A DNA stretch of 64,000 nucleotides, from assembly GCA_949292775.1 (NCBI GenBank), contig CASFBL010000017.1:2387-66386 (forward strand). Reading direction: 5' to 3'. The position numbers and the translations under genes are program-made. Source of the stretch: an uncultured Eubacteriales bacterium (GTDB taxonomy: Bacteria > Bacillota > Clostridia > Oscillospirales > Acutalibacteraceae). Of the stretch, positions 7,510 to 60,875 are shown piece by piece; position 1 is the first letter of the stretch, and each line of letters starts with the position of its first letter. Below the pieces are notes generated by a model. That model worked only from the letters and a program-made list of their open reading frames with translations, had not been told where the DNA came from and did no database searches.

Positions 7510-7672
7510 CATGCACGCTTGTGAAATTTCCGTTAATTTCAAATCAACATTTTCGCCGGATACGCTGAAAAAAGGCACGCCGTATTATTTTTGCCCAAAG
7601 ACGCCGAATGATTCCTGCCGTTTTCGGGAATCCTTTTTAAAAGATACTTTTCTTAATGAAGGAAGGCGGCTT

Positions 7673-38838: not shown

Positions 38839-41470
38839 ATGAAACAGTATCTGCAATCCGCAGAGGAGGTCTTCAAAGCGGTGCAAAGCTCTCCGCAGGG
38901 CCTTTCTACGGCGGAAGCGGAAAAAAGGCTTTTGGAAAACGGCAAAAACAAGCTGGAAGAGGGTAAGAAAAAATCCCTTGCCCGCCGGTTGTTTGAACAG
39001 TTCACCGACCCCATGATTCTGATTTTGATCGCGGCAGCAATCATTTCTGCCGTGACTGCTGTCATGGAAAAAGAATTCCCCGCCGATGTCATCATCATTT
39101 TGGTGGTGGTTGTCATCAACGCTGTGCTCGGCGTCTATCAGGAAAGCAAAGCCGAAAAAGCGATTGAGGCCTTGCAGGAAATGGCGGCGGCAACTTCCAA
39201 AGTGCTTCGTGACGGCGATGTCGTCGAGATTCACAGTGAAGACCTGACCGTCGGCGATGTGATTTTGCTCGAAGCAGGCGATGCTGTGCCGGCAGACGCG
39301 CGTATCATTGAAAGCGCAAGCCTGAAAATTGAAGAGGCGGCGCTCACGGGCGAATCCGTCCCCGTCAACAAGTTTATCGACGCCATTTCGTTGGGCGACA
39401 AAAAGGATGTGCCCCTGGGCGACCGCAAAAACATGATGTATATGGGTTCGTCGGTCGTTTACGGCCGTGGGCGCGCGGTGGTCACGGGCGTGGGCATGAA
39501 CACCGAAATGGGCAAAATCGCCGGGGCGCTCGCCGCGGCAGCAGCTTTCTAAAATTTTGAGCTTCCTGGTGCTCGGCATTTGTGTGTTTATGTTCATTTT
39601 CGGCATCGTCCGGCAGTATATCACCGGCGGAACGCCCGATTTTAATTTCCTGCTTGACACCTTTATGCTCGCCGTTTCGCTGGCGGTTGCCGCCATTCCC
39701 GAAGGGCTTGCAGCTGTTGTGACGGTGGTGCTTTCCATCGGCGTGACCAACATGTCTAAGAAAAATGCGATTATCCGCCGCCTGACTGCGGTGGAAACGC
39801 TCGGCTGTGCGCAGATTATCTGCTCAGATAAGACCGGCACGCTCACACAAAATAAAATGACCGTTGTGGAGCATTACGGCGATAATGAAATGCTGCTCGC
39901 CAAAGGCATGGCGCTTTGCACCGATGTCAATATTGACCACAGCGGCAATTTGGTCGGCGAGCCTACGGAGGCGGCGTTGGTTGCCTATGCATTAAGCTTG
40001 GGGCTGAATAAGAACGACATGCTCAAAGCCGCGCCCCGCGTGGCGGAAGCGCCGTTTGACTCCATGCGCAAAATGATGACAACGGTGCACAAAACGGCTG
40101 ACGGCATTTTGCAGTTCACCAAAGGCGCGCCGGATGAAATTTTGAAAAACTGCACCCATATTTTGAAAAACGGTGAACCGGTCGAAATCACGCAGGCGGA
40201 CCGCGACGCCATTATGGCGCAGAACAAAGCCTATGCTGACCGCGCGCTGCGCGTGCTGGCCTGCAGCTTCCGCACGCTGGACGAAGTTCCGGCGGACCAA
40301 AGCCCCGAAGCGCTTGAGCACGACCTTGTCTTTATCGGTCTTACCGGCATGATTGACCCGGTGCGTCCCGAAGTGAAGGCGGCAATCGAGGAATGCCGCA
40401 CCTCCGGTATTCGTCCGATCATGATTACCGGCGACCACAAAGACACGGCAGTGGCAATCGCCATGGAGCTTGGCATTATCACCAGCCCCTCTGAAGCCAT
40501 CACCGGTGCGGAGCTCGATGAAATCTCTGACGAGGAATTTAAAGACGCTGTTGAAAAGTATTCGGTTTATGCGCGTGTGCAGCCCGAGCACAAGGTCCGC
40601 ATTGTCAACGCTTGGCGTGCGCGCGGCAAGATTACCGCAATGACCGGCGACGGCGTCAACGACGCACCCTCCATTAAGAGCGCTGACATCGGCGTGGGCA
40701 TGGGCATCACGGGTACCGATGTTACCAAAAATGTGGCGGATATGGTGCTTGCCGACGACAACTTTGCCACAATCGTAACCGCGGTGGAAGAAGGCCGCCG
40801 CATTTACGACAACATCCGCAAATCGATTCAGTTCCTGCTCGCTTCCAACTTAAGCGAAGTCATGTCGATTTTCTTCGCAAACATTTTGGGCTTCACCATT
40901 TTGAAGCCGGTGCACCTGTTGTGGATTAACCTTGTGACGGACAGCTTCCCGGCACTTGCGCTGAGCATGGAAAAAGGCGAGAAAAACATTATGAAACGCC
41001 CGCCCAGAAAGTCAACGGACGGTATTTTCGCCGGCGGTGTCGGCGGGGACATTGCTTATCAGGGCTTCTTAGTCACGCTTTTGACCCTTGCGGCATATTT
41101 CATAGGTCACTTTATTGAGTCCGGCCGTTGGGAAATCGTTGACAGCCCGGACGGCATGACCATGGCATTCCTGACTATGTCCATGTGCGAGATTTTCCAC
41201 TCGCTCAATATGCGCTCGCAGCGCGGTTCTATCATTAAAATGGCATTCCAGGGCAGCCACAATAAATATTTGGCTTTGTCCACGATTGCGTCGTTTGTGA
41301 CGACCACCGCGGTCATCTATGTTCCGGGGCTTAACGATGCGTTCGGCTTCGAGCATATCGACCTTCAGGAATATGTAATCGCGCTGGCACTCGCGTTTGC
41401 GATTATCCCGCTTGTGGAAATCATCAAAGCGTTTGAGCGGCTGTATGCGAAGCGCAAAAAGAAAAAATAA
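38839..41470 (+). pseudogene. P2-type cation-transporting P-type ATPase (Ca2+/Mn2+ type) split by a frameshift near 39526-39552
   Basis: ORF1 (38839-39552) covers the N-terminus, M1-M2 and the A domain. ORF2 (39557-41470) carries DKTGTLT, TGDHKDTA, MTGDGVNDAPS and M5-M10. Frame +1 reads QQLSKILSFLVLG across the stop. The usual TPLQ segment before M3 is missing. Confidence 0.6.
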
Positions 41471-45961: not shown

Positions 45962-45990
45962 TTGAAAACACAGGAAAAAGCTGATATAAT
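45962..45990 (+). promoter_or_regulatory. Candidate sigma-A promoter of metG-tatD
   Basis: TTGAAA, 17 nt spacer, TATAAT. Confidence 0.55.
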
Positions 45991-46031: not shown

Positions 46032-47978
46032 ATGTGTGAGAAACCCAAATTTTATATCACCACTGCCATTGCCTACACTTCGCGCAAGCCGCATATCGGC
46101 AACAGCTATGAAATCGTGCTGACCGACGCTATTGCGCGCTACAAACGAATGTTGGGCTATGATGTATTCTTCCTGACCGGCACTGACGAACACGGGCAAA
46201 AAATCGAGGAATACGCCAAAGAAGCCGGTGTAACGCCGAAAGAATATGTGGACAAGGTCGCCGGCGAAATCCGCGGGATTTGCGATTCGCTCAACACGAC
46301 CTATGATAAATTCATCCGCACCACCGACGATTACCACGAAAAAACGGTGCAGAAGATTTTCAAAAAGCTCTATGACCAGGGCGATATTTACAAAAGCGAA
46401 TATGAGGGACTTTACTGCACCCCGTGCGAAAGCTTCTGGACCGAAAGCCAGTTAGACGAAAACGGCTGCTGCCCCGACTGCCACCGCCCGGTGCAAAAGG
46501 CGAAAGAGGAAGCCTATTTCCTGCGCCTTTCCAAATATCAGAAACAGCTGGAAGAATTCATTGAAAGCCACGAAAACTTCATTTACCCCGAAGCGCGCAA
46601 AAAAGAGATGCTCAACAACTTCATAAAACCCGGTCTTCAGGACCTTTGCGTTTCACGCACCTCGTTCAAATGGGGCATTCCGGTCACCTTTGACGAAAAA
46701 CATGTGGTTTATGTCTGGGTGGACGCGCTTTCCAACTATATCACTGCCCTCGGTTATGACCCCGACGGCAGCAGCGACCTTTATAAAAAATACTGGCCGG
46801 CAGATGTGCATATCATCGGCAAAGACATTGTCCGTTTCCACACGATTTACTGGCCGATTATGCTCATGGCGCTCGGCGAGCCGCTCCCGAAGCAGGTCTA
46901 CGGTCACCCGTGGCTTTTGTTCGGCGAGGATAAAATGTCGAAGTCGCGCGGCAATGTGATTTACGCAGACGACCTGATTTCGGTGTTCGGCGTGGACGCG
47001 GTGCGTTATTACCTGCTTTCCGAAATGCCGCACGCGGCAGACGGCTCGATTACCTATGAAACGATGATTGAGCGCTACAACTCCGATCTTGCTAACACCA
47101 TCGGCAACCTTGTCAACCGCACGGTCGCCATGCAGAATAAATATTTTGGCGGCGTTGTGCAGCCCGGCAATGTGACCGGGGAATTTGACGATGAAGTGAA
47201 AGCTTTGGCCGTTCAGACGCTTCGTGATGTCGACCGCTGCTTTAACGAATACAAAATCAGCGACAGCGTGGCGTGCATTCTGACGCTTGCGCGCCGTTTG
47301 AACAAATACATTGACGAAACCATGCCCTGGGCGCTCGCAAAAGACGAAGAAAAGAAAGCAAGACTCGGCACGGTGCTTTATAACCTTTTGGAGGGCATTC
47401 GCTACCTTGCAATTTTGCTTTCCCCCTATATGCCCGATACTTCTAACGCAATCTTTGAACAGCTCGGCACCGATGTGCGCGATTATGATTCCTTGCGCAC
47501 CTTCGGCGGTTTGAAGGCCGGCGAAAAGGTCGGCGAAGCAAAACCGCTGTTTAACCGCATTGACGCTGAAAAGCTGATTGCGGAGCTGACTGCCGCGCAG
47601 AAAGAAAAGCAGGCAGAAGAAAAGAAAGTGGCCGCCGAGGTCGAGGGCCTTGCACAAATCGGCATTGAAGATTTCGGCAAAGTCGAGCTTCGCGTTGCCG
47701 AAGTGACGGCGTGCGAGCCGATTAAACGCGCGAAAAAGCTGTTAAAACTTACGCTCGACGACGGCACAGGCACGCCGAGAACGGTTGCGAGCAGCATAGC
47801 CAAATGGTATGCGCCCGACGACCTGGTCGGCAAAAAGGTGATTGTTGTTGCAAATTTGAAGCCCGCAGTGCTTTGCGGCGTGGAAAGCAACGGTATGATT
47901 CTGGCGGCAGACTGCGCCGAGGACGATGTGAAAGTCGTGTTTGTAGACGGCATGCCGAACGGTGCAAAAATTCGATGA
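46032..47978 (+). CDS. metG: Methionyl-tRNA synthetase with a C-terminal tRNA-binding domain
   Basis: PHIGNSYE (HIGH), KMSKSRGN (KMSKS) and a CxxC...CPDC zinc knuckle. The C-terminal region is OB-fold-like (GKVELRVAEV...VANLKP). Confidence 0.95.
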   Translation: MCEKPKFYITTAIAYTSRKPHIGNSYEIVLTDAIARYKRMLGYDVFFLTGTDEHGQKIEEYAKEAGVTPKEYVDKVAGEIRGICDSLNTTYDKFIRTTDDYHEKTVQKIFKKLYDQGDIYKSEYEGLYCTPCESFWTESQLDENGCCPDCHRPVQKAKEEAYFLRLSKYQKQLEEFIESHENFIYPEARKKEMLNNFIKPGLQDLCVSRTSFKWGIPVTFDEKHVVYVWVDALSNYITALGYDPDGSSDLYKKYWPADVHIIGKDIVRFHTIYWPIMLMALGEPLPKQVYGHPWLLFGEDKMSKSRGNVIYADDLISVFGVDAVRYYLLSEMPHAADGSITYETMIERYNSDLANTIGNLVNRTVAMQNKYFGGVVQPGNVTGEFDDEVKALAVQTLRDVDRCFNEYKISDSVACILTLARRLNKYIDETMPWALAKDEEKKARLGTVLYNLLEGIRYLAILLSPYMPDTSNAIFEQLGTDVRDYDSLRTFGGLKAGEKVGEAKPLFNRIDAEKLIAELTAAQKEKQAEEKKVAAEVEGLAQIGIEDFGKVELRVAEVTACEPIKRAKKLLKLTLDDGTGTPRTVASSIAKWYAPDDLVGKKVIVVANLKPAVLCGVESNGMILAADCAEDDVKVVFVDGMPNGAKIR

Positions 47979-48745
47979 ACTATCAAAATATTTTTGACAG
48001 CCACGCCCATTACGACGACGAGCGGTTTTCCGATGACCGCGAAGCGCTTTTGGCGACTTTTGAGGAAAGCGGCGTGTGCGGCGTGGTTTCCTGCGGCGTT
48101 AGCCCCGAAACCTGCAAGTTTTCGGTGTCGCTTTCAGAAAAATATCCGTTTATTTACGCGGCGGCGGGCTTTCACCCGCTGAACCTCCGCGAAGTGCCGG
48201 AAGATATTGAAAGTGCGCTCGCGCCGTTTTTTGACTACCAGAAATGTGTGGCGGTCGGCGAAATCGGGCTGGACTATCATTATGAAAAAGAAACGCGCGC
48301 ACAACAGCTCGTGCTGTTTGAACGCCAGCTGCAATTTGCGTGCGAACGGGATTTGCCCGTGATTGTGCATGACCGCGAAGCGCACGCCGACACCTTGGCG
48401 CTTTTGCAAAAATACAAACCGCGCGGCGTGGTGCACTGCTTTACGGGCAGTGTGGAAATGGCGCGCGAGGTGCTGAAACTGGGCATGTACATAGGTCTCG
48501 GCGGCGCAGTGACCTTTAAAAACGCCGTGAAGCCGGTCGAGGTCGCGGCGATGGTGCCCGACGACCGTTTGCTTGTCGAAACCGACGCGCCTTATATGAC
48601 GCCGGTGCCGTTCCGCGGCAAACGCTGTGATTCGCGGCACATTGCCTACACCGCCGAACGCCTTGCAGAGATTCGCTCGACGGATACACAGGCGATTTTG
48701 GACAAGACCTGTCAGAACGCGAAAGACCTTTTCGGCATCGCATAA
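47975..48745 (+). CDS. tatD: TatD-family metal-dependent hydrolase
   Basis: Start MNYQNIFDSHAHYDD overlaps the metG stop (ATGA). EIGLDYHY and ETDAPYMTP are also present. Confidence 0.9.
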   Translation: MNYQNIFDSHAHYDDERFSDDREALLATFEESGVCGVVSCGVSPETCKFSVSLSEKYPFIYAAAGFHPLNLREVPEDIESALAPFFDYQKCVAVGEIGLDYHYEKETRAQQLVLFERQLQFACERDLPVIVHDREAHADTLALLQKYKPRGVVHCFTGSVEMAREVLKLGMYIGLGGAVTFKNAVKPVEVAAMVPDDRLLVETDAPYMTPVPFRGKRCDSRHIAYTAERLAEIRSTDTQAILDKTCQNAKDLFGIA

Positions 48746-48760: not shown

Positions 48761-49495
48761 GTGGAAACCTTTTCGATTGCAAAACTGAATGTCCGTTTTG
48801 AAGCCGCGGGCGACTTGTTATATACCCGCACGCGCGCTTATCTTGCACCCGAACAGAACGCAAAAGCGGACATCACGATTGATTTACCCGAATCATTTTT
48901 CAAAGAAAAACACCGGCAGTTTCCAACATTGACGCTTGACGAGTGCCGCTATGTTTGGGTGGGCGAAGCGTTTTATGCAGGACTTCTTCGGCACGACGGG
49001 CTGTTGATGCACGCTTCGTGCGTGGAACGAAACGGCGGCGCCTATTTGTTTTCCGCAAAAAGCGGCACGGGAAAATCCACCCACACAAAGCTTTGGTTAC
49101 AGGAATTTTCCGACTGCAAAATGATTAACGATGACAAACCGGCTCTAAGACGCATGGACGGGCAGTTTTACGCCTGCGGCACGCCGTTTAGCGGCAAACA
49201 TGATGAAAGCCGCAATGTGCAGGTGCCCGTGCGCGCAATCGTATTTTTAGAGCGCGGCGAAAAAAATGAGGTCGCACCGCTGACATCTGCCGAGGCAATC
49301 CCGCTGTTTTTGTCGCAGACATTGCGCCCGCCGAAAAAAGAATTGATGGCGCAAATGCTCGACCTTTTGGGCGGGTTGCTCGAAAGCGTGCCGGCTTTTC
49401 GGCTTCGGTGCAATATGGAGCCGTCCGCGGCGCATATCGCCTGTCAAAGCATCGAAAACTATATTCAACAAAACAAAAAAGAGGGCTTAAAATGA
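48761..49495 (+). CDS. HPr-kinase-related P-loop protein
   Basis: The GTG start follows GGAGG. SAKSGTGKSTHTKLW is a Walker-A-like loop, followed by INDDKP. Size and layout resemble the HprK C-terminal domain-like proteins found next to PqqD genes. Confidence 0.65.
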   Translation: METFSIAKLNVRFEAAGDLLYTRTRAYLAPEQNAKADITIDLPESFFKEKHRQFPTLTLDECRYVWVGEAFYAGLLRHDGLLMHASCVERNGGAYLFSAKSGTGKSTHTKLWLQEFSDCKMINDDKPALRRMDGQFYACGTPFSGKHDESRNVQVPVRAIVFLERGEKNEVAPLTSAEAIPLFLSQTLRPPKKELMAQMLDLLGGLLESVPAFRLRCNMEPSAAHIACQSIENYIQQNKKEGLK

Positions 49496-49758
49496 AAATA
49501 AAAGAGGGCTTTTTGCTGCGCGAGGTCGCGGGCAGCAACATTGTGGTTCCCGTCGGTAAAGCGGAGCTGGATTTCGGTGGCATGCTGACTTTGAACCCTG
49601 TCGGCGCGTTTATTTGGAATCAGTTAAGCGAGGACACGACCGAAGAAAAAATCGTCCAAGCGGTGCTTGACGCTTATGAAATCGACGAAGCAACCGCGCG
49701 GCGCGACACCCACGCTTTTTTGGAAAAGTTGCGTGAGCAAGGGCTTCTTGAGGACTGA
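49492..49758 (+). CDS. PqqD-family protein (RiPP recognition element-like)
   Basis: 88 aa. MKIKEGFLLREVAGSNIVVP...LNPVGAFIWNQL...EEKIVQAVLDAYEIDEATARRDTHAFLEKLREQGLL is a typical PqqD layout. The ATG overlaps the upstream stop (ATGA). Confidence 0.75.
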   Translation: MKIKEGFLLREVAGSNIVVPVGKAELDFGGMLTLNPVGAFIWNQLSEDTTEEKIVQAVLDAYEIDEATARRDTHAFLEKLREQGLLED

Positions 49759-49764
49759 ATCTGT

Positions 49765-50214
49765 ATGGAAAAGAAAAAGGTTCGCCTTTCCCAAATGCTC
49801 CCGGCTATGGAAGAAACGCTCGCGGCAGGCGGCACGGTGAAACTGCCGATTACCGGCACAAGCATGCTTCCGCTTTTGGTCGCCGGGCGCGACACCGTGA
49901 TTTTGAAAAAACCGGCACTGCCGCTGAAACGGTTTGATTTGCCGCTTTACAGGCGCAAAGACGGCGCGTTTGTTTTACACCGTGTCGTAGCGGTCGAAAA
50001 GGACGGCACTTACACCATGTGCGGCGACAACCAGTGGGTCAAAGAGCCGGGCATTTCCGGCGAACAGTTTATCGGGGTTGTCGAAGCGGTGGAGCGAAAA
50101 GGGAAATTGCTGCCGGTTCAGTCGTTTCGTTACCGTGCTTATGTGCGGTTTTGGCACGCGCTGTTTCCGGTGCGCAAATATCTTGTGAAATTGAGAGGAA
50201 AGCTGAAAAAGTGA
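49765..50214 (+). CDS. Soluble S26B/S24-like serine peptidase (SipW/Sec11-type motifs)
   Basis: GTSMLPLL (Ser nucleophile box), FVLHRVV (His box) and CGDNQ (GDN box). No N-terminal TM helix is visible. Confidence 0.65.
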   Translation: MEKKKVRLSQMLPAMEETLAAGGTVKLPITGTSMLPLLVAGRDTVILKKPALPLKRFDLPLYRRKDGAFVLHRVVAVEKDGTYTMCGDNQWVKEPGISGEQFIGVVEAVERKGKLLPVQSFRYRAYVRFWHALFPVRKYLVKLRGKLKK

Positions 50215-51884
50215 AAAATCCGACTGCACTTCGCTGGATATGGTCCCGCACGAAGCGGGAAACACCGCTTTTGGTGCTGCTGACTTTCAGCAACGCCCTG
50301 CTTTCGGTGTGCTCGGTTTCACTTGCACTGCTCGCAAAGCAGATTGTAGACGCGGCGGTAAGCGCCGACCGTAACCACCTCGTTCGCCATTCTGTGGTTT
50401 TGCTCTGTGTAATTTTATTGCAGGTGCTTTTGCGCGTTTTAATTAAAAGTCTGGAAGTGCGCGTTTCGGGCCGCATGGAAATGGAATACAAACGCGTGCT
50501 GTTCGGCGAGATTTTGTCAAAGGACTATTCTTGTGTGACCGCCTTTCACTCCGGCGAATTGCTGACGCGGCTGACAAGCGACATCACACTTGTGACCGAC
50601 ACGGTAACGACGCTTGTGCCGTCTGTTGCGGCGATGCTCACAAAACTCGTCTGCGCATTTTTGGTTATTTTATCACTCGACAAATGGTTCGCTGCGATTT
50701 TGCTGGTCGGCGGGCTTTTGGTGTTTTCGGGCACGCGGCTTTTCCGCGGCAAAATCAAGTCTATGCACCGCCGCGTGCAGGAGACCGACGGAAGCCTTCG
50801 GTCGTTTTTACAGGAATCGATTGAGAGCCTTTTGGCAGTTCAGGTGTTCGGCGTCCAGAAAAAGGTCGAGGCACAGGCGCTCGAACGCGCCGAAGAAAAT
50901 TATGACGCAAAACTTAAACGCAACCGCTGGGCAATTTTTGCCAATACGGGCTTTTCCGCGGCGTTTGCGTTCGGTTTTTTGTTTGCGCTGGTATTCGGCG
51001 GTTTTCGGCTTTGTGCCGGCGAAATTTCGTTTGGCACGCTGACAGCGCTCTTGCAGCTGGTCAATCAGGTGCAGACCCCGTTTTCGAGCCTTTCCGGCAT
51101 CGTGCCGAAATATTACAGCATGCTCGCGTCGGCAGAACGCTTAATGGAAATCGAAGCCCTGCCGAAAGATGACCCCGAAACGGCGGCGACCGACACCGCG
51201 GCGCTGTGCGAGGGCTTCCAAAGCATTCGATTTGACGGCGTTTCGTTTGCTTACGGGCAAAATGAAGTGCTCACGGACGCAACCTTTGCAATTCAGAAGA
51301 ATGATTTTGTTGTGCTTTCCGGCATTTCCGGCATAGGCAAAAGCACATTGTTTAAACTATTGTTGGGCGTGCTTTCGCCTGATTCCGGCACGATTACCGT
51401 GCAGTCCGGCGGCAAAGCTTATAAAGCGGGAAAAGATACCCGCGCGCTGTTTGCCTATGTGCCGCAGGGAAATCTGTTGTTTTCCGGCACGGTGCGCGAC
51501 AATATTCGGTTCATCCGCGAGGACGCAACGGACGAGGAAGTGAAAGAGGCGGTACGCATCAGCTGTGCCGACAGTTTTGTCTATGATTTACCGAAAGGCC
51601 TTGACACGGTGCTCGGCGAGGGCGGCCGCGGGCTTTCCGAAGGGCAGATTCAGCGCCTTGCTGTGGCGCGCGCCGTGCTGACGGATGCGCCGATTTTGCT
51701 TTTAGATGAGGCAACCTCCGCTTTGGACGAAGAAACCGAACGCCGCTTGCTTGAGAATGTTCGCGCCATGCAAAATAAAACCTGCATCATCATTTCTCAC
51801 AAAAAAGCAGCTTATGCCATTTGTGAGAAAGAAGTGAAAATTTCAGAAAAGCAGGCAGTTTTGCAAAAAATCAGGGAAAAATAA
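50211..51884 (+). CDS. ABC exporter, fused permease-ATPase half transporter
   Basis: The GTG start overlaps the upstream stop (GTGA). It has a six-TM exporter domain, GISGIGKST (Walker A), LSEGQIQRLA (signature) and ILLLDEATSALD (Walker B). There is no N-terminal C39 peptidase domain. Confidence 0.85.
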   Translation: MKNPTALRWIWSRTKRETPLLVLLTFSNALLSVCSVSLALLAKQIVDAAVSADRNHLVRHSVVLLCVILLQVLLRVLIKSLEVRVSGRMEMEYKRVLFGEILSKDYSCVTAFHSGELLTRLTSDITLVTDTVTTLVPSVAAMLTKLVCAFLVILSLDKWFAAILLVGGLLVFSGTRLFRGKIKSMHRRVQETDGSLRSFLQESIESLLAVQVFGVQKKVEAQALERAEENYDAKLKRNRWAIFANTGFSAAFAFGFLFALVFGGFRLCAGEISFGTLTALLQLVNQVQTPFSSLSGIVPKYYSMLASAERLMEIEALPKDDPETAATDTAALCEGFQSIRFDGVSFAYGQNEVLTDATFAIQKNDFVVLSGISGIGKSTLFKLLLGVLSPDSGTITVQSGGKAYKAGKDTRALFAYVPQGNLLFSGTVRDNIRFIREDATDEEVKEAVRISCADSFVYDLPKGLDTVLGEGGRGLSEGQIQRLAVARAVLTDAPILLLDEATSALDEETERRLLENVRAMQNKTCIIISHKKAAYAICEKEVKISEKQAVLQKIREK

Positions 51885-51978: not shown

Positions 51979-53409
51979 ATGGATTATAATTCTGTTTCAA
52001 AAAAAGACGAGGAAGGGATCAGCATTGAAACCGTGCTGATTTACATCAGAAAAGTATTGGAGCGCTGGTGGATTGTTGCTGTGTCCGCTGTTTTGTTGGC
52101 GGTTGTTGGATTCAGTGCGGCTACCATCACTTATGTGCCGACTTATTCCTCGCAAATTATGTTTATTGCGAGCAACCGGCAAACTTCTATGATTGTTTCC
52201 GGCCAAAGCTCGTCGGATATCAACGCTTCGGTGACACTGGCAACCAGTTACCAGTATGTGTTCACAACGACAGAGCTCGCCACAAAAGTGGCACAGAACT
52301 GTGGCTATAAGGATATTTCGGCAGAGGAAATCAAGCGCTTTGTTTCTGTGCAGTCTGTTGAGGACACGGCGATTGTTAACCTGACCGTCACCACGACCAA
52401 TGCAGATTTATCCTATTCAATTGCAAAGGCCTATCAGAGCCTATATGAAGAAGCCATCACAGCGGCGTTCCCCAGCACTACACTGACGGTGATTGACCCG
52501 CCGCTTCTTCCCGAAAAGCCGAATGCCGACAACAGTGCGCTGATTTATACGCTTCTTGGCTTTGCGGCTGGTCTTGCGCTCTCGGTTTTGGGAATCCTTT
52601 GCAGCGTGATTTTGAAAGACACCGTCAAGAGTACGGACGATGTGCAGAGCAAGCTGGGCTTGAAAATTATCGGCACGGTCAATCATGTTGCCAACAAGTC
52701 GAAAAAGAAAAAGGGTGAAAAGACCAGCATTCTGATTACCGACCGAAAATCAGGCTTCGGGTTTATCGAAACCTTTAAGCTGATCCGCACCAAAATGGAC
52801 CATATCAGTGCCCGCAAAAACATGAAAGCGTTTATTGTGACCAGCACGATGGAAAACGAGGGCAAAACGACCACGGCGGTCAATCTGGCGTTGGCGCTTG
52901 CCAAAAACGGCAAAGAGGTGCTGCTGATTGACGGTGACTTGCGCAAGCCCGCGGTTGCGAAGTCCCTTGGCATCAATGCAGGGGACGACACCGGCATTCT
53001 CGGCATTGTGGAAGGGCAAAAGTCTTTGGCGGATTCCATTAAATATTCTGAAAAATATAATTTGTATTTGCTTTTGAACGGCCGCGCGGTTGTCGACCCT
53101 TCAGAGATGCTCTCCACCTCGCAGACAGAAGAAATCATTGCCCGCGCCAAGCAGGAATTTGATTATGTGGTGATTGACACCGCGCCCAGCGGCGTCGTGG
53201 CAGATGCTTCGATTCTTGCAGGCTTTGCCGATGGCATTGTTTTGGTGATCCGGCAGGATGTTGCACCGCAGCGCCGCATTAAGCGTGCCATAGAAAACCT
53301 CGACAATTCCGGCACGGAAATCATCGGCTGCATTTATAATGATGCCAGCAATGGCAAATATGTTTCCCGCGCATATAACAAACGCTACGGCTACGGTTAC
53401 GGTGAATAA
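51979..53409 (+). CDS. Fused Wzz-type chain-length determinant and bacterial tyrosine (BY) kinase
   Basis: Start MDYNSVSK. Two TM helices flank an extracytoplasmic Wzz-like domain. The C-terminal kinase domain has TSTMENEGKTTT (Walker A), LLIDGDLRKP and VVIDTAP. The tail is Tyr-rich (RAYNKRYGYGYGE). Confidence 0.85.
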   Translation: MDYNSVSKKDEEGISIETVLIYIRKVLERWWIVAVSAVLLAVVGFSAATITYVPTYSSQIMFIASNRQTSMIVSGQSSSDINASVTLATSYQYVFTTTELATKVAQNCGYKDISAEEIKRFVSVQSVEDTAIVNLTVTTTNADLSYSIAKAYQSLYEEAITAAFPSTTLTVIDPPLLPEKPNADNSALIYTLLGFAAGLALSVLGILCSVILKDTVKSTDDVQSKLGLKIIGTVNHVANKSKKKKGEKTSILITDRKSGFGFIETFKLIRTKMDHISARKNMKAFIVTSTMENEGKTTTAVNLALALAKNGKEVLLIDGDLRKPAVAKSLGINAGDDTGILGIVEGQKSLADSIKYSEKYNLYLLLNGRAVVDPSEMLSTSQTEEIIARAKQEFDYVVIDTAPSGVVADASILAGFADGIVLVIRQDVAPQRRIKRAIENLDNSGTEIIGCIYNDASNGKYVSRAYNKRYGYGYGE

Positions 53410-53460
53410 ACCTGCCTAAAGAGCTACGGCTACACGGGGTTACAAAAATATGCAAAAAAA

Positions 53461-53494
53461 AGTAACAAAACCGCATGTTTTGTTACTTTTTTTG
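53461..53494 (+). terminator. Rho-independent terminator after the BY-kinase gene
   Basis: AGTAACAAAAC-CGCAT-GTTTTGTTACT followed by TTTTTTT. Confidence 0.75.
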
Positions 53495-53716: not shown

Positions 53717-54247
53717 ATGGATATGAATATGGATGTAAAAGATCTTATTGCTATGCTGAAAAACAAAACCGGCAAGGGCAAGGGGACAAAGAAGGACTCG
53801 CGCGGCGGCAGTTCCTTTGTGAATTTCTTTGAAAAGAATCCAAAGATGAAAATCATCCTGCCTGCGTTCCTGATTTTGATTGCTGTTGCGGTTGCCGTGG
53901 TGCTGATTGTGACCGGCATTCAGACCGAAACCGATGTTGACCCAGATTCGGCGGTCGCCGGTGCGGCAGTCGAGGTTTTGCCAATGCAGGAGCGCACAGA
54001 AGGGGAGACGCTTGCAGACGGCGTAGATCCGTTTGCAGAAGATGTAATCGCCAACGCCAAACTGCGCGGTTTGATTTATAACAGTGACGGTTACTGGACG
54101 GCGATTGTTGACACACAATATGCTTCCTATACACTGCAAGTCGGCGACTATGTTGGTTCTTCGTCTTGGCTTGTTGAGGAGATCACCTCGAACACCGTGA
54201 CCTTCTCTCTCGGGGAAAAGACAAGAACCATTGAAATGAAAACCTGA
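53717..54247 (+). CDS. Bitopic PilP / GspC-HR-like protein
   Basis: The start follows GGAGG. It has a Lys-rich N-terminus and one TM helix. DPFAEDV...LRGLIYNSDGYWTAIVDTQYASYTLQVGDYVGSSSWLVEEITSNTVTFSL has the DPF-plus-beta-sandwich pattern of PilP/GspC HR domains. Confidence 0.5.
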   Translation: MDMNMDVKDLIAMLKNKTGKGKGTKKDSRGGSSFVNFFEKNPKMKIILPAFLILIAVAVAVVLIVTGIQTETDVDPDSAVAGAAVEVLPMQERTEGETLADGVDPFAEDVIANAKLRGLIYNSDGYWTAIVDTQYASYTLQVGDYVGSSSWLVEEITSNTVTFSLGEKTRTIEMKT

Positions 54248-54301
54248 GTTTTAACGGATTTAAACCGGATACAGATTTATTCAGTTTAAGGGGAGAAAAA
54301 T

Positions 54302-56032
54302 ATGAACAGTTCTAAAAAAACACTGAAAGCGGTTCTGGTGTTTGTGCTGGCGGTTTTGCTGCTGTCCAACGCCGTGCTGCCGATGTCCGTCATGGGTTCG
54401 GACAATGACGGTGCTGCCGATTATCAGTATTATTCCGTTAAGTCGGGAGATACGCTGTCACGCATTGCCAAAAACTATGGCGTGACGATCAGTGATATTA
54501 TGACGGCGAACGATTTGTCTGATGCGGACCGCATTTATACCGGGCAAATCATCAAGGTGCCGCTGAGTTCCGCGTCCGGTCAGGGCAGCGCCTTGGTTTC
54601 CTCGCGCATTTCTCTGAATGTGGTGGACGCCAATATTAAAGATGTTCTGTCGGCAATTGCGCTCAATGCAGGCTATACCATTATTTTGGAAGACCCGTCT
54701 GTTTCGTCCACCGTTACCGTTCAGCTGGAGGAAATGTCTCCGCTGAAGGCGATTGATTATGTCACGCGCTTTGTGGACATGACCTATCTAAAAGACGGCA
54801 ACACCATTATGGTTGGCACAGCGGAAGCGCTGAACAGCACCTTTGTCGATAAAACGGTTCTCTCCAAAATAACACTGAAATACATATCTGCTGAAGGGCT
54901 GCAAACGCAAATGTCGGCGCTTGGACTTTCCAATGTGCAGATTGTCAGCACCAATAATAAAGACGAGTTTTATGTTTCCGGTTACCCAAAGGAGCTCGCA
55001 AAAGTTTCAGAGCTTGTCAAGCTGTTGGATGTCAGCTCCAACATTATGGCGGGCGGCGGGCTTATCCCCTCTAATTTCTCGGCGCTGGAGCTTGAACATA
55101 TCACTGCGGAAGAATTCAACGGCCTTTTGGGCAACCTGGGCTTGAGCCAGGGTATCGTGTTGGCTTCGCGCCCCTACACGCTTTACGTGTATGTGACCGG
55201 CGCGAATCTGACGGATATTAAAACCATTAAAAATATTGTGGACAGACCTTTATCCGGCGCGAATCTGACTGCGACAACGCAGCCGTCGGGCAGCGGCGAT
55301 GTTACGGTCCCCGAAACTACAACCGGTTCGCAGGACAGCGGTACGACGGCGCCGCAGGGCGGCTCCGGCGACGGCGGCACAACAACTTCCGGACCGACTA
55401 TTTTGCGCGAAATCCAGTTGACGGTCATTGACCGTGTCGCGGCGGTAGAAATTCTGGAAAGCTTCCCGCTGGAAGTTCAGATTTACGGACCTGAAAAGAT
55501 GACGAAGAAAATTTGGATTGCCGGTACACAGACGCAGGTGGATCAGGCAGAAAGCTATATCCGCCAGTTCGACAGCGAGGAATATGCCTCATCTGTGCTC
55601 AATGACAAGAGCTTCTTTGCTTATCAGCTTCAGAACTGCACGGCGTCAGAAATGCTTGAAAGACTGTCTAACCTGACGCTGGAGGGCGTAACCTTTAAGA
55701 CCAATGCATATCCTGCGGCAACGAAATCCCTGTTGGTTTATTGCGATTCTTATTTGGTAGAGGCGACAAAGGCGCTGCTTGCTGAAATGGATACCACTTC
55801 CACAGGTGAAAAGGCGAACCGCGCAATTGAAGCAACGCCGGATTCTGGTACGGCGCAGGCTCGTATTGATGCGCTCAAAGACCTTTACCCTGAGTTGCAG
55901 AACTATCAGTTCACCTTGAAGACCATTCCGAATAAATCCGGCGAGACCAGATGCATTACCTATGTCATGGCAACTACGGAAGATGCGGATTATATCAAGG
56001 CGCTGTTTACTGAATTGGATACAGCGGCATAA
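54302..56032 (+). CDS. Secreted LysM protein with 5-6 secretin-N/ring-building-motif-like modules and no secretin barrel
   Basis: Signal or anchor peptide, then LysM at aa 43-87 (YSVKSGDTLSRIAKNYGVTISDIMTANDL...GQIIKVP). An N0/STN-like module follows (ISLNVVDANIKDVLSAIALNAGYTIILED...). Repeated ~60-aa modules each end in ..L(L/V)xxxD. A Gly/Thr/Ser linker is present. No VP.LGDIP.LG..F-type secretin motif was seen. Confidence 0.6.
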   Translation: MNSSKKTLKAVLVFVLAVLLLSNAVLPMSVMGSDNDGAADYQYYSVKSGDTLSRIAKNYGVTISDIMTANDLSDADRIYTGQIIKVPLSSASGQGSALVSSRISLNVVDANIKDVLSAIALNAGYTIILEDPSVSSTVTVQLEEMSPLKAIDYVTRFVDMTYLKDGNTIMVGTAEALNSTFVDKTVLSKITLKYISAEGLQTQMSALGLSNVQIVSTNNKDEFYVSGYPKELAKVSELVKLLDVSSNIMAGGGLIPSNFSALELEHITAEEFNGLLGNLGLSQGIVLASRPYTLYVYVTGANLTDIKTIKNIVDRPLSGANLTATTQPSGSGDVTVPETTTGSQDSGTTAPQGGSGDGGTTTSGPTILREIQLTVIDRVAAVEILESFPLEVQIYGPEKMTKKIWIAGTQTQVDQAESYIRQFDSEEYASSVLNDKSFFAYQLQNCTASEMLERLSNLTLEGVTFKTNAYPAATKSLLVYCDSYLVEATKALLAEMDTTSTGEKANRAIEATPDSGTAQARIDALKDLYPELQNYQFTLKTIPNKSGETRCITYVMATTEDADYIKALFTELDTAA

Positions 56033-56043
56033 TTCACAAATAT

Positions 56044-56064
56044 GGGTGCGGGTTTCCCGCACCC
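56044..56064 (+). other. Intercistronic GC hairpin without a U-tract
   Basis: GGGTGCGGG-TTT-CCCGCACCC lies between the LysM-module gene and pilT. Confidence 0.4.
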
Positions 56065-56106
56065 TAAAGTGATTTTCCATACTCAACATAAGGAGTGCAG
56101 ACAGGC

Positions 56107-57204
56107 TTGAATATTACAGGAAAACCCAGCAATTACCCGCACACATTAGAAGACCTTCTCCGCCTGACCGTAGAAAAAGGCGGCTCTGACCTGCATTTGG
56201 TCGCCGGTATCCAACCGTGCATCCGCGTCAACGGCGACTTGCTTCGGCAGGATATGCCGGTGCTGCAGCCGGAAGACATTGAAGTGATGCTGTTTTCTAT
56301 GATGACAGAGGAGCAAAAGCAATCGTTTTTAGAAGAGTGGGAGCTGGACCTTGCACTGTCTGTTCCGCAGTGTGCACGGTTCAGAGGCAATATAATTGTT
56401 CAGCGCGGCACGCTGGCTGCGGTGTTCCGTGCGATTCCGTTTGAAGTGCCGGATTTGGATAAACTCGGGCTTCCGCAGGATGTTAAGCGGCTGTGTAATC
56501 TGCCGCGAGGCCTTGTTTTGGTTACCGGACCTACCGGCAGCGGTAAATCCACAACTTTGGCCGCGATGATTAAATACATAAACGAACGCTATGAAACCAA
56601 TATTGTAACGGTTGAAGACCCGATTGAATTTTTGCACACGCACATCAAATCTACGGTGCGTCAGCGTGAAATCGGCACGGATACCCACAGCTTTGCAAAT
56701 GCATTGCGCACGGTGCTGCGTCACGACCCGGACACCATTATGATCGGCGAAATGCGCGATCCGGAAAGCATCTCTATTGCAATTACAGCGGCAGAGACCG
56801 GGCACTTGGTGTTTTCCACACTTCACACACAGACTGCGCCGATGACCATTTCGAGAATCATTGACTCTTTCCCGGAAGGGCAGAAAGGACAGATTCGCCA
56901 GCAGTTGGCGAACTCTTTGAAAGCGGTTATTTCTCAGCAGCTTATTCCGACCGTGAACGGAAAGGGCAGAGTGCTGGCTGTGGAATATATGACGGATACG
57001 CCATCGGTGCGCAACCTGATTCGTGAAGAAAAAGAGCATCAGCTTTATGCAACTATGCAGACCGCACAGCTGCAGGGCATGCAGACGATGGATCAGGCGC
57101 TTTTGAAGCTCTGCCGCGAGCAGAAAATCAGCAAGGAATCCGTTGTTGAATACTGCGTGGATGAAAAAGAAGTCCGGCGGCTTCTTTCAACAATGGGTTA
57201 TTAA
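56107..57204 (+). CDS. pilT: Type IV pilus retraction ATPase PilT
   Basis: GPTGSGKST (Walker A), Asp and His boxes, and SVRNLIREEK, which corresponds to the PilT AIRNLIRE signature. The start is uncertain: TTG at 56107 follows AGGAG, while the tracked GTG at 56095 overlaps the RBS. Confidence 0.9.
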   Translation: MNITGKPSNYPHTLEDLLRLTVEKGGSDLHLVAGIQPCIRVNGDLLRQDMPVLQPEDIEVMLFSMMTEEQKQSFLEEWELDLALSVPQCARFRGNIIVQRGTLAAVFRAIPFEVPDLDKLGLPQDVKRLCNLPRGLVLVTGPTGSGKSTTLAAMIKYINERYETNIVTVEDPIEFLHTHIKSTVRQREIGTDTHSFANALRTVLRHDPDTIMIGEMRDPESISIAITAAETGHLVFSTLHTQTAPMTISRIIDSFPEGQKGQIRQQLANSLKAVISQQLIPTVNGKGRVLAVEYMTDTPSVRNLIREEKEHQLYATMQTAQLQGMQTMDQALLKLCREQKISKESVVEYCVDEKEVRRLLSTMGY

Positions 57205-57216
57205 GGAGGCGGTTTT

Positions 57217-58419
57217 TTGGCAGCCTTTACATATGACGGCTTAAACCGTCAGGGACAAAATGTGCACGGCGAGGTTGTGGCGGACAATTCCGGCGCCGCA
57301 ATTGAAAAGCTCCGTGAAGCGGGTGTGCTGGTTACCGATATCAGTGAAAAGACGGTTAAACAGGCGCGGCGGCGCGGCGGAAAAAAGGTCACGCTGACAG
57401 ACACTTCCCTGTTCAGTCGGCAGCTTGCCGCCATGCTTTCGGCCGGTGTGCCGGTCACAAGAGCGCTTGCCACTTTGGCGAAGCAGACGACCAACCCCAC
57501 ACTTGCTGCGGCGATTGAAGATATTTCAAAAAATGTTGAAAGCGGCGGCACGCTGGCAGACGCGTTTGCGCAATACCCTAAAATTTTTAATAAGCTTTTT
57601 GTTTCGATGATAGAAACCGGTGAACTGGGCGGTATTTTGGAACAGTCCCTAATGAGCCTGTCTACCCAGTTGCAAAAGGAAAAGAATCTGAAGGATAATA
57701 TCAAGTCAGCTGTTTCGTATCCGAAAAACATCGGCATTTTCGCACTGTTCCTTTTGCTGGCAATGCTGGCGTTTATGGTGCCGATGTTCCAGAAAATGAT
57801 ACCGGCAGATACAGAATTGAATGCGTTGACGAATGCAATTTTCCTTGTGTCCGGCAGCTTGCGCAGTCAGTGGTATCTTTGGCTTGTTTGTGCTGCAATT
57901 CTAATCGGGGTGCTCGTGCTTATCAAACGCAGCAAGCCGGCGCACCAGTTTTGGGAAAACACCAAGCTGCGAATGCCTATGTTTGGTTCGTTTATTACCA
58001 AAATGTGTGTTGCGCGCTTTTGCCGCACGCTTGCAACCTTAATTTCCGGCGGCGTGACTGCGGTGGACGCGCTGCAAAGCGCTGGCCCGACAGCGGGCAG
58101 TGACTTAATTGAAAACGCAGTGAACGACGCCATAGCTGATATAGAAGAGGGCAAGGCAATTTCGGAATCCTTAGATAAAAGCGGACTTTTCCCGCCGATG
58201 GTCATTGGTATGATCGCAATCGGTGAGGAAGCCGGTACTTTGCCGGAGCTGCTTGATAAGGTTGCTGAATTTTATGAAGAAGATGTTGAAGTCACCTCGC
58301 GGAACCTGCGTTCCATGATTGAGCCAATCGCATTGATTTTGGTCGGTGCGTTGGTCGGCGGTATGTTGATTTCACTGTATTTGCCCATTTTCTCGGCAAC
58401 AACTGCGGTGGGTTCATAA
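57217..58419 (+). CDS. pilC: Type IV pilus platform protein PilC (GspF family)
   Basis: Two GspF repeats and three TM segments. The TTG start follows AGGAGG. Confidence 0.9.
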   Translation: MAAFTYDGLNRQGQNVHGEVVADNSGAAIEKLREAGVLVTDISEKTVKQARRRGGKKVTLTDTSLFSRQLAAMLSAGVPVTRALATLAKQTTNPTLAAAIEDISKNVESGGTLADAFAQYPKIFNKLFVSMIETGELGGILEQSLMSLSTQLQKEKNLKDNIKSAVSYPKNIGIFALFLLLAMLAFMVPMFQKMIPADTELNALTNAIFLVSGSLRSQWYLWLVCAAILIGVLVLIKRSKPAHQFWENTKLRMPMFGSFITKMCVARFCRTLATLISGGVTAVDALQSAGPTAGSDLIENAVNDAIADIEEGKAISESLDKSGLFPPMVIGMIAIGEEAGTLPELLDKVAEFYEEDVEVTSRNLRSMIEPIALILVGALVGGMLISLYLPIFSATTAVGS

Positions 58420-58512
58420 CCCCGTTTGCGCGTGCCGTGGCGGCGCGAAACAGATGTTGGCCCCTAAAGCGAAAAAACGGTTTTGGGAGCACGATTACAG
58501 GAGACGGATAAT

Positions 58513-59502
58513 ATGGCAAAGAACAAAAGCATAATCGGATTTGAGGTGGACACCTCTGAAATTCGTGCTGTGGAGCTGACCCGGGTCAACGGGGCATACA
58601 GCGTTTTGGCCTGCGGGAAAATTCCGTTGGAGGATGGCACGGTAGAAGAAGGATTTGTTCGGAATACAGAGGCGTTTTGCAAAGCGCTTGCCGAACTGCT
58701 GCAAAACGGCAGCTTCAAATCCGCAGATGTTGTTGTTGGCGTCAACAACGAAAATGTTATTATGCGTTACGCCTCTTTCCCGAAAATCGCTGAAGATAAA
58801 CTGCGCAACATGGTTCTTTTGCAGGCGCAAGAGTTTATTCCCATTCCGGTGCAGGAAATGGAGATTGACTATGTAATTGCCGGGGAAGATTTGAGCAATG
58901 ACGAGCAGCCCATGATCAATGTTTTGCTTGTCGCGGCGCGCCGCAATATGCTGGAACAGATTATTACGCTTCTGAACACTGCCAAGCTGCAGGTCGTAGA
59001 TATTGACTCGTCGGTGCTTTCCTTGTGCCGTGCGCTCGGAGCTGTCGCGGGCAATAAAAAATATGCGCTTTTAAATTTGACCGACGATATGCTGAATTTT
59101 TTGGTGATTCGCGGGCAGGAAATTTCCATGGTGCGTTCCATCGCTGTACCGGAACGCGCACAGGAAGCTGTTGAGGAACTGTTCCAGGGGACAATCAGCG
59201 GTGAGATTTCCGATGCCGTGCTGTCGGAAGTCGGCGCTATGCTGGCGGCTGAAACCTCTTCTTCTGTCAGTTACTATACCATGCAGAACATGGAAGACCC
59301 GATTGAGCATATCTATTTAGTTTCCGGCGCCGGTAGGACAGATGAGCTTGCAAAAATGATTTCAGATGCTGTTTATACCATCCCGGTGGAGGTTCCCCGA
59401 TTCTATGAAGGGCTGAACCTTGGGCTTGAGCCGGATGTAATTAAGGAATTTGCCGGATGCATCGGCCTTGCCGTGCAGGCATTGGAGGGATACCGTGTTT
59501 AA
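58513..59502 (+). CDS. pilM: Type IV pilus assembly protein PilM (actin-like)
   Basis: Start MAKNKSIIGFEVDTSEIRAVEL. The actin-fold layout is typical of PilM. Confidence 0.85.
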   Translation: MAKNKSIIGFEVDTSEIRAVELTRVNGAYSVLACGKIPLEDGTVEEGFVRNTEAFCKALAELLQNGSFKSADVVVGVNNENVIMRYASFPKIAEDKLRNMVLLQAQEFIPIPVQEMEIDYVIAGEDLSNDEQPMINVLLVAARRNMLEQIITLLNTAKLQVVDIDSSVLSLCRALGAVAGNKKYALLNLTDDMLNFLVIRGQEISMVRSIAVPERAQEAVEELFQGTISGEISDAVLSEVGAMLAAETSSSVSYYTMQNMEDPIEHIYLVSGAGRTDELAKMISDAVYTIPVEVPRFYEGLNLGLEPDVIKEFAGCIGLAVQALEGYRV

Positions 59503-60223: not shown

Positions 60224-60235
60224 GGGGGATTGGAC

Positions 60236-60844: not shown

Positions 60845-60875
60845 TTTTTGATTTCTTACAGGGAGCACGATACAC

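Follow-up and report, generated by a model that had tools for sequence, protein, structure and literature searches.

Gene clusters for phosphorylated and phosphoglycosylated lasso peptides in Firmicutes encode an HprK homologue (K), a PqqD protein (B1), a leader peptidase (B2), a cyclase (C), an ATP-binding cassette (ABC) exporter (D) and, in some clusters, a nucleotidyltransferase (N), which lies between B2 and D and is in some cases fused to B2 (PMC8498205). An 'uncharacterized nucleotidyltransferase' is likewise common in rumen lasso clusters (PMC7533575). In a phosphorylated lasso system, PqqD (B1) speeds up the HprK-type kinase and passes the leader on to the protease, and the published lasso leader motif consists of YxxPxL at −17 to −12 with Thr at −2 (PMC10368454). 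Here, we analyzed a 64-kb stretch of DNA from an uncultured Eubacteriales bacterium (GCA_949292775.1, contig CASFBL010000017.1; the window, to whose positions coordinates refer unless a related locus is named), which carries at 48761–51884 a cassette of four genes encoding an ScmC-family P-loop protein, a PqqD-family protein, an anchorless Ser/His peptidase and an ABC exporter. We interpret these genes as a probable module for peptide maturation and export, related to lasso clusters but lacking the cyclase, with a precursor encoded at a distance.

The closest described systems are lasso clusters of the paeninodin, pseudomycoidin and BsfA type from Firmicutes and Proteobacteria, whose products are phosphorylated or phosphoglycosylated. 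The cassette shares with them the HprK-homologous kinase, the standalone PqqD-like leader-recognition protein (B1) that lasso clusters require and the ABC exporter (D). Its relatives additionally share an optional NTP_transf_5 nucleotidyltransferase after the leader peptidase, sometimes fused to it, and candidate precursors with Y-x-x-P-x-L, Thr(−2) and a small residue at +1. Unlike in lasso clusters, neither a cyclase nor a B2 protease is present in the window or within 10 kb of the cassette in 80 related loci (the cyclase by motif scan and B2 by spot-checked clustering), and the S24/S26-fold peptidase of the cassette occupies the B2 slot. The peptide leader spacing is also two residues longer, the C-terminal residue is usually not Ser and the precursor gene can be distal. 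With C and B2 missing from the window and from the 80 neighbourhoods, the cassette does not qualify as a lasso cluster; plausibly, it acts like that half of such a cluster which recognizes the leader, tailors the peptide and exports it.

A second point of comparison is the SynChlorMet (SCM) cassette, in which a P-loop protein is likewise paired with a PqqD-family protein (ScmC and ScmD; TIGR04249 and TIGR04248; PF27840) and which carries the radical SAM/SPASM partners ScmE and ScmF. The present proteins score far under the corresponding equivalog cut-offs (47.9 versus 125 bits and 27.8 versus 100 bits), and the genes are accompanied by a peptidase and an ABC exporter instead of radical SAM/SPASM partners. 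Given these scores and the missing radical SAM partners, the cassette is not a SynChlorMet system.

Results

A translationally coupled cassette without core enzymes

The ORF (open reading frame) listing and the junction sequences place four co-oriented genes on the + strand at 48761–51884. The ScmC-like gene starts with GTG at 48761, with GGAGG 8 nt 5' of the start, and its stop codon shares the tetranucleotide ATGA with the PqqD start (49492–49495). The PqqD gene stops at 49758 and is followed after a 6-nt gap by the peptidase ATG at 49765, while the peptidase stop and the GTG start of the ABC gene share GTGA (50211–50214). The chaining by ATGA and GTGA overlaps and a 6-nt gap described in the initial annotation is borne out by these junctions. 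All four ORFs are intact. Compared to the closest related locus, L002 (peptidase identity 89%), the ratio of nonsynonymous to synonymous substitution rates (dN/dS) is 0.05–0.15 for all four cassette genes (0.14 for the P-loop protein gene and 0.05 for the PqqD gene), similar to tatD and the bacterial tyrosine kinase (BY-kinase)-like gene 3' of the cassette, from which we conclude that the cassette is functional and not a relic.

The tatD-like gene that forms the 5' context of the cassette (47975–48745, + strand; PF01026) ends 15 nt before the ScmC-like gene, so the cassette is probably co-transcribed with metG and tatD. No promoter-like site was found between tatD and the ScmC-like gene, and the best upstream site lies before metG at 45962–45990 (11/12 matches, with TG; a consensus match only). 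At the other end, an extended −10-like sequence, also a consensus match only, precedes the BY-kinase-like gene, so that the cassette and this gene may be separate units. A strong terminator-like hairpin, again a consensus match only, lies 3' of the BY-kinase-like gene at 53455–53493.

The core enzymes of known peptide clusters were sought in the window. Among the genes scanned with Pfam, which were most of those in the window, there were no asparagine-synthetase-like, transglutaminase-like (B2) or radical SAM genes, and no ORF in any frame of the window contained the lasso-cyclase PP-loop motif (SGGxDS). A regular expression for lasso-type leaders and two hidden Markov models (HMMs) built from the peptides of relatives gave no match in the window (best E = 5.3), nor did an Rfam scan of 45–55 kb. 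The earlier statement that no lasso cyclase, transglutaminase-type protease, radical SAM gene or precursor lies nearby therefore holds within the 64 kb by Pfam, motif and profile scans.

The P-loop protein, PqqD-family protein and ABC exporter

The first gene (48761–49495, + strand) encodes a 244-aa ScmC-family P-loop protein with an HprK/phosphoenolpyruvate carboxykinase (PEPCK) fold, the presumed peptide kinase, assigned from profiles, fold and motifs. Its top NCBIfam match was ScmC (TIGR04249; E = 1.1e-12, 47.9 bits versus a cut-off of 125), followed by HprK-related kinase A (HprK_rel_A; E = 3.5e-5, under the cut-off), and PEPCK was also matched. The local Pfam copy returned no match, and the newer Pfam family PF27840 (ScmC) is assigned to the protein by precomputed annotation, as it is to 120/120 homologues among the matches listed. 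A sequence-level PDB search gave no match, and fold comparison was needed. The AlphaFold2 (AF2) model, built on 26 homologues (predicted local distance difference test score (pLDDT) 94), matched HprK/P of L. casei best in a Foldseek search of the PDB (1kkl; E = 2.5e-6, probability 1.0), with 1kkm, 2qmh and ATP-dependent PEPCKs among the other top matches (E = 2.5e-6 and above). The Walker motif S101-G-x-G-K-S-T107 is invariant save for T/V at position 103 (SG(T/V)GKST), and N123-D-D-K-P-A128 (NDDKPA) is invariant in the homologues. The ScmC and HprK_rel_A profiles, the HprK/P fold and the Walker motif together uphold the initial assignment as an HPr-kinase-related P-loop protein. The protein shares the PEPCK-like kinase fold with HprK/P itself but differs from it in sequence (~15% identity), in structure (TM-scores 0.3–0.5, with a different N-terminal half) and in gene partner, which is PqqD and not ptsH or carbon-catabolite genes.

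The second gene (49492–49758, + strand) encodes an 88-aa protein that matches PF05402 with E = 5.5e-21 (75 bits versus a cut-off of 23.4), in agreement with the proposed PqqD family, and that is presumed to be the leader-peptide recognition element. In NCBIfam it comes closest to NF033530 and NF033536, the models of lasso-type PqqD chaperones, with scores under the cut-off (44.7 versus 70 bits). The fourth gene (50211–51884, + strand) encodes a 557-aa half-size ABC exporter in which a transmembrane domain (ABC_membrane, E = 5.9e-30, from residue 22) precedes a nucleotide-binding domain (ABC_tran, E = 1.4e-24). Since the membrane domain opens at residue 22, the predicted lack of a C39 domain is correct: no C39 peptidase domain was found in the protein, and alignments to C39-type models begin only at model positions 134–155. 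The exporter is in this respect unlike the C39-type peptide-cleaving bacteriocin exporters.

An anchorless peptidase of the S24/S26 clan

The presumed leader peptidase (149 aa; 49765–50214, + strand) was assigned from its profile match, sequence boxes and fold. It matches TIGR02228 (archaeal/Sec11-type signal peptidase I) weakly (E = 3.6e-4, 20.4 bits versus a cut-off of 51.85). Its Ser/His boxes, GTSM.P, HR and CGD.Q, include the invariant residues S33, H72 and D88; across 16 homologues down to 49% identity, G31-T-S-M34, P36, H72-R73, C86-G-D88 and Q90 are all invariant. A sequence-level PDB search with the peptidase profile gave a marginal match to signal peptidase I alone (E = 0.82). The AF2 model (pLDDT 86) matched LexA, SipA, SpsB and human SEC11A in Foldseek (E about 1e-3 to 1e-2), as well as UmuD and lambda repressor. 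No hydrophobic or transmembrane segment was detected (maximum 19-residue Kyte–Doolittle value 1.21 versus 2.48 for the ABC protein), and the peptidase is predicted to be cytoplasmic because it lacks a transmembrane anchor. The C-terminus consists of two basic helices, with a net charge of +9 over residues 121–148. As judged from its sequence and model, the 149-aa protein is an anchorless Ser/His enzyme of the S24/S26 clan.

Like the Sec11/SipW (S26B) signal peptidases, the enzyme has a GTSM.P Ser box, an HR(V/I) box and a GDN-like box, a LexA/signal-peptidase fold and a His in place of the Lys of S26A enzymes. Unlike them, it is anchorless, has only 149 aa with two basic C-terminal helices, scores under the TIGR02228 cut-off and is encoded next to PqqD and not next to secreted-protein genes; it is not a bona fide membrane signal peptidase. 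The combination of SipW/Sec11-type boxes with a missing membrane anchor, noted in the initial annotation, is thus supported by the invariant boxes, the fold and the hydropathy.

Relatives of the peptidase form 1,748 clusters at 50% identity in the protein library (E ≤ 1e-10). In metagenomic proteins, the peptidase domain was also found fused to GNAT acetyltransferases (P0178, P0185, P0201 and P0217) and to ATPgrasp_ST, the 'sugar-transfer associated ATP-grasp' (P0209), which hints at further tailoring chemistries on the same peptidase.

A family of small acidic peptides next to the kinase gene

In sister lineages, acidic peptides of 34–60 aa that belong to one family are encoded directly 5' of the kinase gene. 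One or two such ORFs, on the + strand between surface-protein genes and the kinase gene, were present in 16 of the 80 genome loci, which together encode 29 peptides, often in tandem. The same placement was seen in 11 of the peptide-centred metagenome loci with enough downstream sequence, in a survey that used the Fimenecus-type subset of the peptides. Unbiased clustering of small intergenic ORFs in the 80 loci recovered the family, which is the only genuinely conserved, non-shadow small ORF 5' of the cassette. Nearly all other small-ORF clusters near the cassette in these loci were rejected as shadow ORFs antisense to PqqD or its neighbours; the exceptions were SpoIIIAC-like genes and one 25-aa downstream ORF.

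The peptides share an ungapped leader, M..Y-x-x-P-x-[L/I/F]-x8-[D/E]-[V/I]-[I/L]-T-x-S, followed by Gly/Asp-rich cores that mostly end in ...G-W-x-[D/E]-[I/V/L], ...G-[D/E]-W-Y or ...GGDGYIDFDDIL; a Fimenecus-type precursor is exemplified by MKQVYTAPAFDVSVYDVDDIITLSIGTGPVEGGDDGWVEI. A profile search of the protein collection retrieved 315 peptide clusters, none of which is informatively named. In the best 120 of these 315 clusters, Ser(+1), Pro(−16) and an aromatic residue at −19 are each found in 120/120 and Thr(−2) in 119/120. Core position 8 is acidic in 86/120 compared to an acidic background of 19%, the modal core length is 17 and Trp occupies core position 14 in 74/120. The C-terminal residue is usually hydrophobic or Tyr. 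A large subtype, S-S-V-V-T-T-x-P..., has no acidic residue at positions 7–9, where a lasso core has Asp or Glu. By sequence, the leader appears to mirror the YxxPxL/Thr(−2) pattern bound by lasso-type PqqD proteins. The invariant T-x-S also fits the −3/−1 rule of type I signal peptidases, so that cleavage could fall before or after the invariant Ser. No description of the peptide family or of the cassette system was found in the searchable literature, Pfam or NCBIfam.

Conservation and genomic context of the cassette

The organism of the window is Candidatus Fimenecus-like (Oscillospirales). Relatives of the peptidase were confirmed in at least 513 GTDB species-representative genomes. Gene order was counted in the 79 best loci with a scorable peptidase, and neighbourhoods were scanned in the 80 related loci. 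PqqD adjoins the peptidase in 73/79 loci and the ScmC-like kinase is present in about 64/79. The constant unit is the pair of PqqD and peptidase, usually with the kinase. The gene 3' of the peptidase is more variable: it encodes the ABC exporter in 33/79 loci and an NTP_transf_5 nucleotidyltransferase (PF14907, E = 1e-39) in 21/79, fused to the peptidase in 5, and a CapD-like Polysacc_synt_2 gene (E = 4.6e-122) occurs in 11/79. The initial annotation had proposed a survey of the four-gene order across Clostridia; the PqqD–peptidase pair recurred, whereas the full order, with its exporter in 33 loci only, is not the conserved unit.

A BY-kinase-like gene lies 3' of the cassette in 44/79 loci and type IV pilus genes follow in the same order in 29/79, and the suspected relation to neighbouring tyrosine-kinase and pilus loci is in this sense supported as conserved synteny. 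The upstream context differs among loci (metG-tatD, c12-c13-c16 and others, c12, c13 and c16 being the surface-protein genes described below). In other genera, the genes 3' of the peptidase encode sugar transferases (Bac_transf), glycosyltransferases (GT1 and GT2), UDP-GlcNAc 2-epimerase and Polysacc_synt_2 proteins. Among ORFs of ≥300 aa within 10 kb in the 80 loci, the PP-loop cyclase motif occurred in GuaA of L044 alone. Neighbourhood clustering of the same loci yielded no conserved B2-like gene, the clusters having been spot-checked by Pfam and not exhaustively, and no radical SAM family was found among the conserved neighbours of the related loci.

Two further intergenic features were noted in the related loci. 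In related Fimenecus loci, gaps of 200–350 bp between tatD and the kinase gene hold repeat-like sequence (L004, 3081–3390; L006, 1–370; L007, 1–360; L010, 4881–5150; L017; L019), whose translation repeatedly shows the motif ...ILSEAKDLKQHK...RLTAQNDK, both inside single loci and across them. No conserved ORF was found in these gaps, and the window has no such gap. Six loci with the nucleotidyltransferase-type cassette carry the conserved 25-aa ORF (MKYTRIGVVCPK...LDIFNT..E; L038, 4026–4100; L040, 4990–5064; L043, 13877–13951; L046, 13659–13733; L065, 14174–14248; L069, 13168–13242) after the BY-kinase-like gene and before the first pilus gene; it may encode a small protein or mark a regulatory region that is conserved.

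A possible distal location of the precursor gene

No member of the peptide family was found in the ±10 kb flanks of the closest relatives of the cassette (L002–L019 and L028). In the metagenome-assembled genome GCA_051881355.1 (JBJEPS01, Ca. Fimenecus sp. PUUB15_bin.004), the cassette and the peptides are both present on separate contigs. Contig 63 (L005; peptidase identity 73%) has the gene order of the window (metG-tatD-kinase-PqqD-peptidase-ABC-BY-kinase-pilus), and contig 20 (L141) has two tandem 40-aa peptide genes. These lie between genes for a 1,732-aa, a cohesin-like and a 380-aa protein on their 5' side and the S10 ribosomal operon on their 3' side. Likewise, the peptide P0326 is encoded on a 2,270,698-bp contig of the same size as OZ007023.1, the carrier of the window-type locus L028, and in the readable contigs it lies 3' of genes for an 872-aa beta-helix protein and a LuxR-type regulator. 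These two cases make a distal substrate gene realistic.

The genes next to the peptides form a recurrent operon, c12-c13-c16, for a dockerin protein of ~1,700 aa, a cohesin-like protein of ~375 aa and a third protein of ~390 aa whose C-terminal domain is conserved (L020, 546–8367; L141, 1794–9817; L088–L130, 5' of the peptide genes). The c13 protein also bears a dockerin-like C-terminal motif, seen by eye. The peptide gene lies directly 3' of c12-c13-c16, or of a gene for a protein sharing the c16 C-terminal domain, with or without the cassette following the peptide. This placement was seen in those peptide-centred metagenome loci in which upstream sequence is preserved and peptide identity exceeds about 60%; some contigs were too short to include upstream genes, and a few weak peptide matches had no surface-protein genes next to them. 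Ancestrally, the order in this family appears to have been genes for surface proteins, one or more peptides, the kinase, PqqD, the peptidase, a variable gene X, BY-kinase and pilus, and the position of the peptide at the junction leaves room for a functional tie to the surface apparatus. By analogy with JBJEPS01, the precursor gene of the source genome would be expected outside the window, 3' of a cohesin/dockerin surface-protein operon; tblastn searches with the c12, c13 and c16 proteins gave no match in the window.

Away from the cassette, the peptide genes have varied neighbours: either a response regulator together with a histidine kinase, or a regulator of the LuxR type, or a MarR-like gene and a pair of ABC exporters (L121, 10774–13879; L082, 5840–7051; L112, 8934–13067). 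Such neighbours are typical of peptide signalling or bacteriocin loci.

Other genes of the window

Directly 3' of the cassette, a Wzz-like and ParA/BY-kinase-like protein with a Tyr-rich C-terminus (YNKRYGYGYGE) is encoded at 51979–53409 (+ strand; AAA_31, CbiA and ParA matches, weak Wzz). Its gene separates the cassette from the pilus genes, and no glycosyltransferase genes lie near it in the window. The type IV pilus gene set (53717–62561, + strand; Pfam matches) comprises genes for a membrane protein with no Pfam match, a protein with LysM and secretin N-terminal domains, PilT-like, PilC, PilM, PilN-like, PilO-like and PilB-like proteins. The second of these (54302–56032; 576 aa) has LysM and secretin N-terminal domains (N0 and Secretin_N), the secretin pore domain not being matched. 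Its host is presumably a single-membrane Clostridia organism, and the protein may form a wall-spanning ring for the pilus.

Apart from the cassette, the Pfam-scanned genes of the window are housekeeping and type IV pilus genes only, including lgt, folD, mreBCD, a PBP2-like transpeptidase gene, hisS, aspS, proBA, rnf genes, hsp33, metG, tatD and a P-type ATPase gene. The P-type cation ATPase (38839–41470) is split over two ORFs in different frames at 39552/39557, which reflects either a frameshift pseudogene or an assembly error. At 7511–14896, and unrelated to the cassette, a gene encodes a 2,461-aa protein of the GH94/glycoamylase type, which may be a glucan synthase or phosphorylase; two genes for M16 peptidases come after it.

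Discussion

On balance, we favour a role of the cassette in the processing of a small acidic peptide whose gene lies elsewhere in the genome, guided by a RiPP (peptide made by the ribosome and modified after translation) recognition element, probably with phosphorylation as well, and in its export. The cassette would then be a RiPP-type module akin to the accessory part of phosphorylated lasso clusters, and it is by analogy with these that we infer its function, the identity of the peptide as substrate and each of the catalytic steps. In the proposed sequence, PqqD would bind the N-terminal leader of the 34–60-aa acidic precursor, and the HprK-like ScmC protein, aided by PqqD, would phosphorylate the peptide, the invariant Ser being the likeliest site. 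The cytoplasmic S26-type Ser/His peptidase, standing in for B2, may then cut off the leader at the invariant T-x-S, and the ABC half-transporter would export the product. As no cyclase is present, the simplest product would be a peptide that is linear and possibly phosphorylated.

Several observations weigh against this assignment. The kinase is missing in about 15 loci and the ABC exporter in 46, so that phosphorylation and dedicated export are not universal. About 60 of the 80 related loci have no detectable adjoining peptide, the window has no precursor and the peptide is linked to the cassette by analogy only. Searches of the peptides against Pfam and NCBIfam gave no meaningful match and no known precursor model fits, and the Tyr-to-Thr spacing of 17 residues departs from the 15 of canonical lasso leaders. 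The peptidase model is of low confidence at the active-site loop (residues 32–35). The polysaccharide or BY-kinase genes that recur 3' of the cassette could point to a different substrate. Where the blocks have separated, the peptide stays with c12-c13-c16 (L082–87, L098, L112, L121, L141 and L143), which makes the surface operon, and not the cassette, its closest genomic partner.

These last points feed the main alternative, in our view unlikely, in which the cassette serves the adjoining surface locus (BY-kinase, type IV pilus, capsule or exopolysaccharide) by processing or modifying a protein, lipid or glycan, with the peptides as unrelated neighbours. The BY-kinase-like gene keeps its place 3' of the cassette in 44/79 loci despite differing upstream contexts, but synteny inside one bacterial order can be inherited and not functional, and the extended −10-like sequence before the BY-kinase gene suggests that the two may be separate units. 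The Polysacc_synt_2, Bac_transf, GT1, GT2 and UDP-GlcNAc 2-epimerase genes 3' of the peptidase in other genera speak for this alternative, as do the fusions of the peptidase domain to the sugar-transfer associated ATP-grasp and to GNAT, and its chief argument is that the peptide gene segregates with the surface-protein operon and not with the cassette. Against this stand the identity of PqqD-family proteins as known peptide-binding chaperones (by their Pfam and NCBIfam names), the leader features of the peptides, which are those expected for a lasso-type PqqD partner, and the combination of kinase, PqqD, nucleotidyltransferase and ABC exporter, which is the accessory set of lasso clusters (PMC8498205). 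A role at the surface locus and peptide maturation are not mutually exclusive.

Still less probable is that the peptides become lasso-like macrolactams by a non-canonical route, in which the S26-type peptidase would replace B2 and the HprK-like enzyme would replace the cyclase by activating Asp/Glu8, for example as an acyl phosphate, for ring closure onto the N-terminus that the peptidase exposes. Such a product, of equally slight likelihood, would have a bond between Ser1 and Asp/Glu8, plugged by Trp14, and may act on the adjacent cohesin/dockerin adhesin and pilus machinery. The peptide statistics are compatible with this chemistry: Ser is found at +1 in 120/120, and the eighth core residue is acidic in 86/120 versus the 19% background, with a modal core length of 17 and Trp14 in 74 cores. 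The position-8 count is not independent, as the peptide clusters are interrelated, and the large S-S-V-V-T-T-x-P... subtype has no acidic residue at 7–9. The leader, with Y-x-x-P-x-L/I/F and Thr(−2), is of the lasso type (PMC10368454), and no PP-loop cyclase lies within 10 kb in the 80 loci; a canonical cyclase could nevertheless sit elsewhere in these genomes. The HprK-type enzymes of lasso clusters are known to phosphorylate Ser hydroxyls only (PMC8498205, PMC10368454), and the kinase itself is missing in about 15 loci.

That the cassette is a decayed, functionless fragment of an ordinary lasso or sactipeptide cluster, as accessory kinase, PqqD and ABC genes without core enzymes might suggest, is very improbable and was rejected, as the same core recurs in hundreds of species, with no conserved B2 gene and no cyclase found in the 80 scanned neighbourhoods, no radical SAM gene occurs among the Pfam-scanned window genes or in related loci and the genes are intact, coupled and under purifying selection like tatD and the BY-kinase-like gene.

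The peptide-maturation reading retains much of what was first proposed. All descriptive claims of the initial annotation stood, whereas the four-gene order as a conserved unit did not. Its suggestion that a minimal system phosphorylates, processes and exports a peptide encoded at a distance is strengthened by a peptide family, distal in JBJEPS01, but the order of the four genes is not constant and the catalytic steps are drawn from analogy.

If peptide maturation is the function of the cassette, its peptidase, a Ser/His member of the signal-peptidase clan that lacks an anchor and is guided by PqqD, would represent a new type of leader peptidase for RiPPs. Kinase, PqqD, nucleotidyltransferase and exporter would then form a modular accessory set that works apart from lasso cyclization. 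The peptides would constitute a new family that is widespread in abundant gut Oscillospirales, and mining rules keyed on lasso cyclases or radical SAM enzymes probably miss them. The neighbouring adhesin-like proteins, BY-kinase-like gene and pilus would suggest a possible peptide signal or cofactor for the commensal cell surface.

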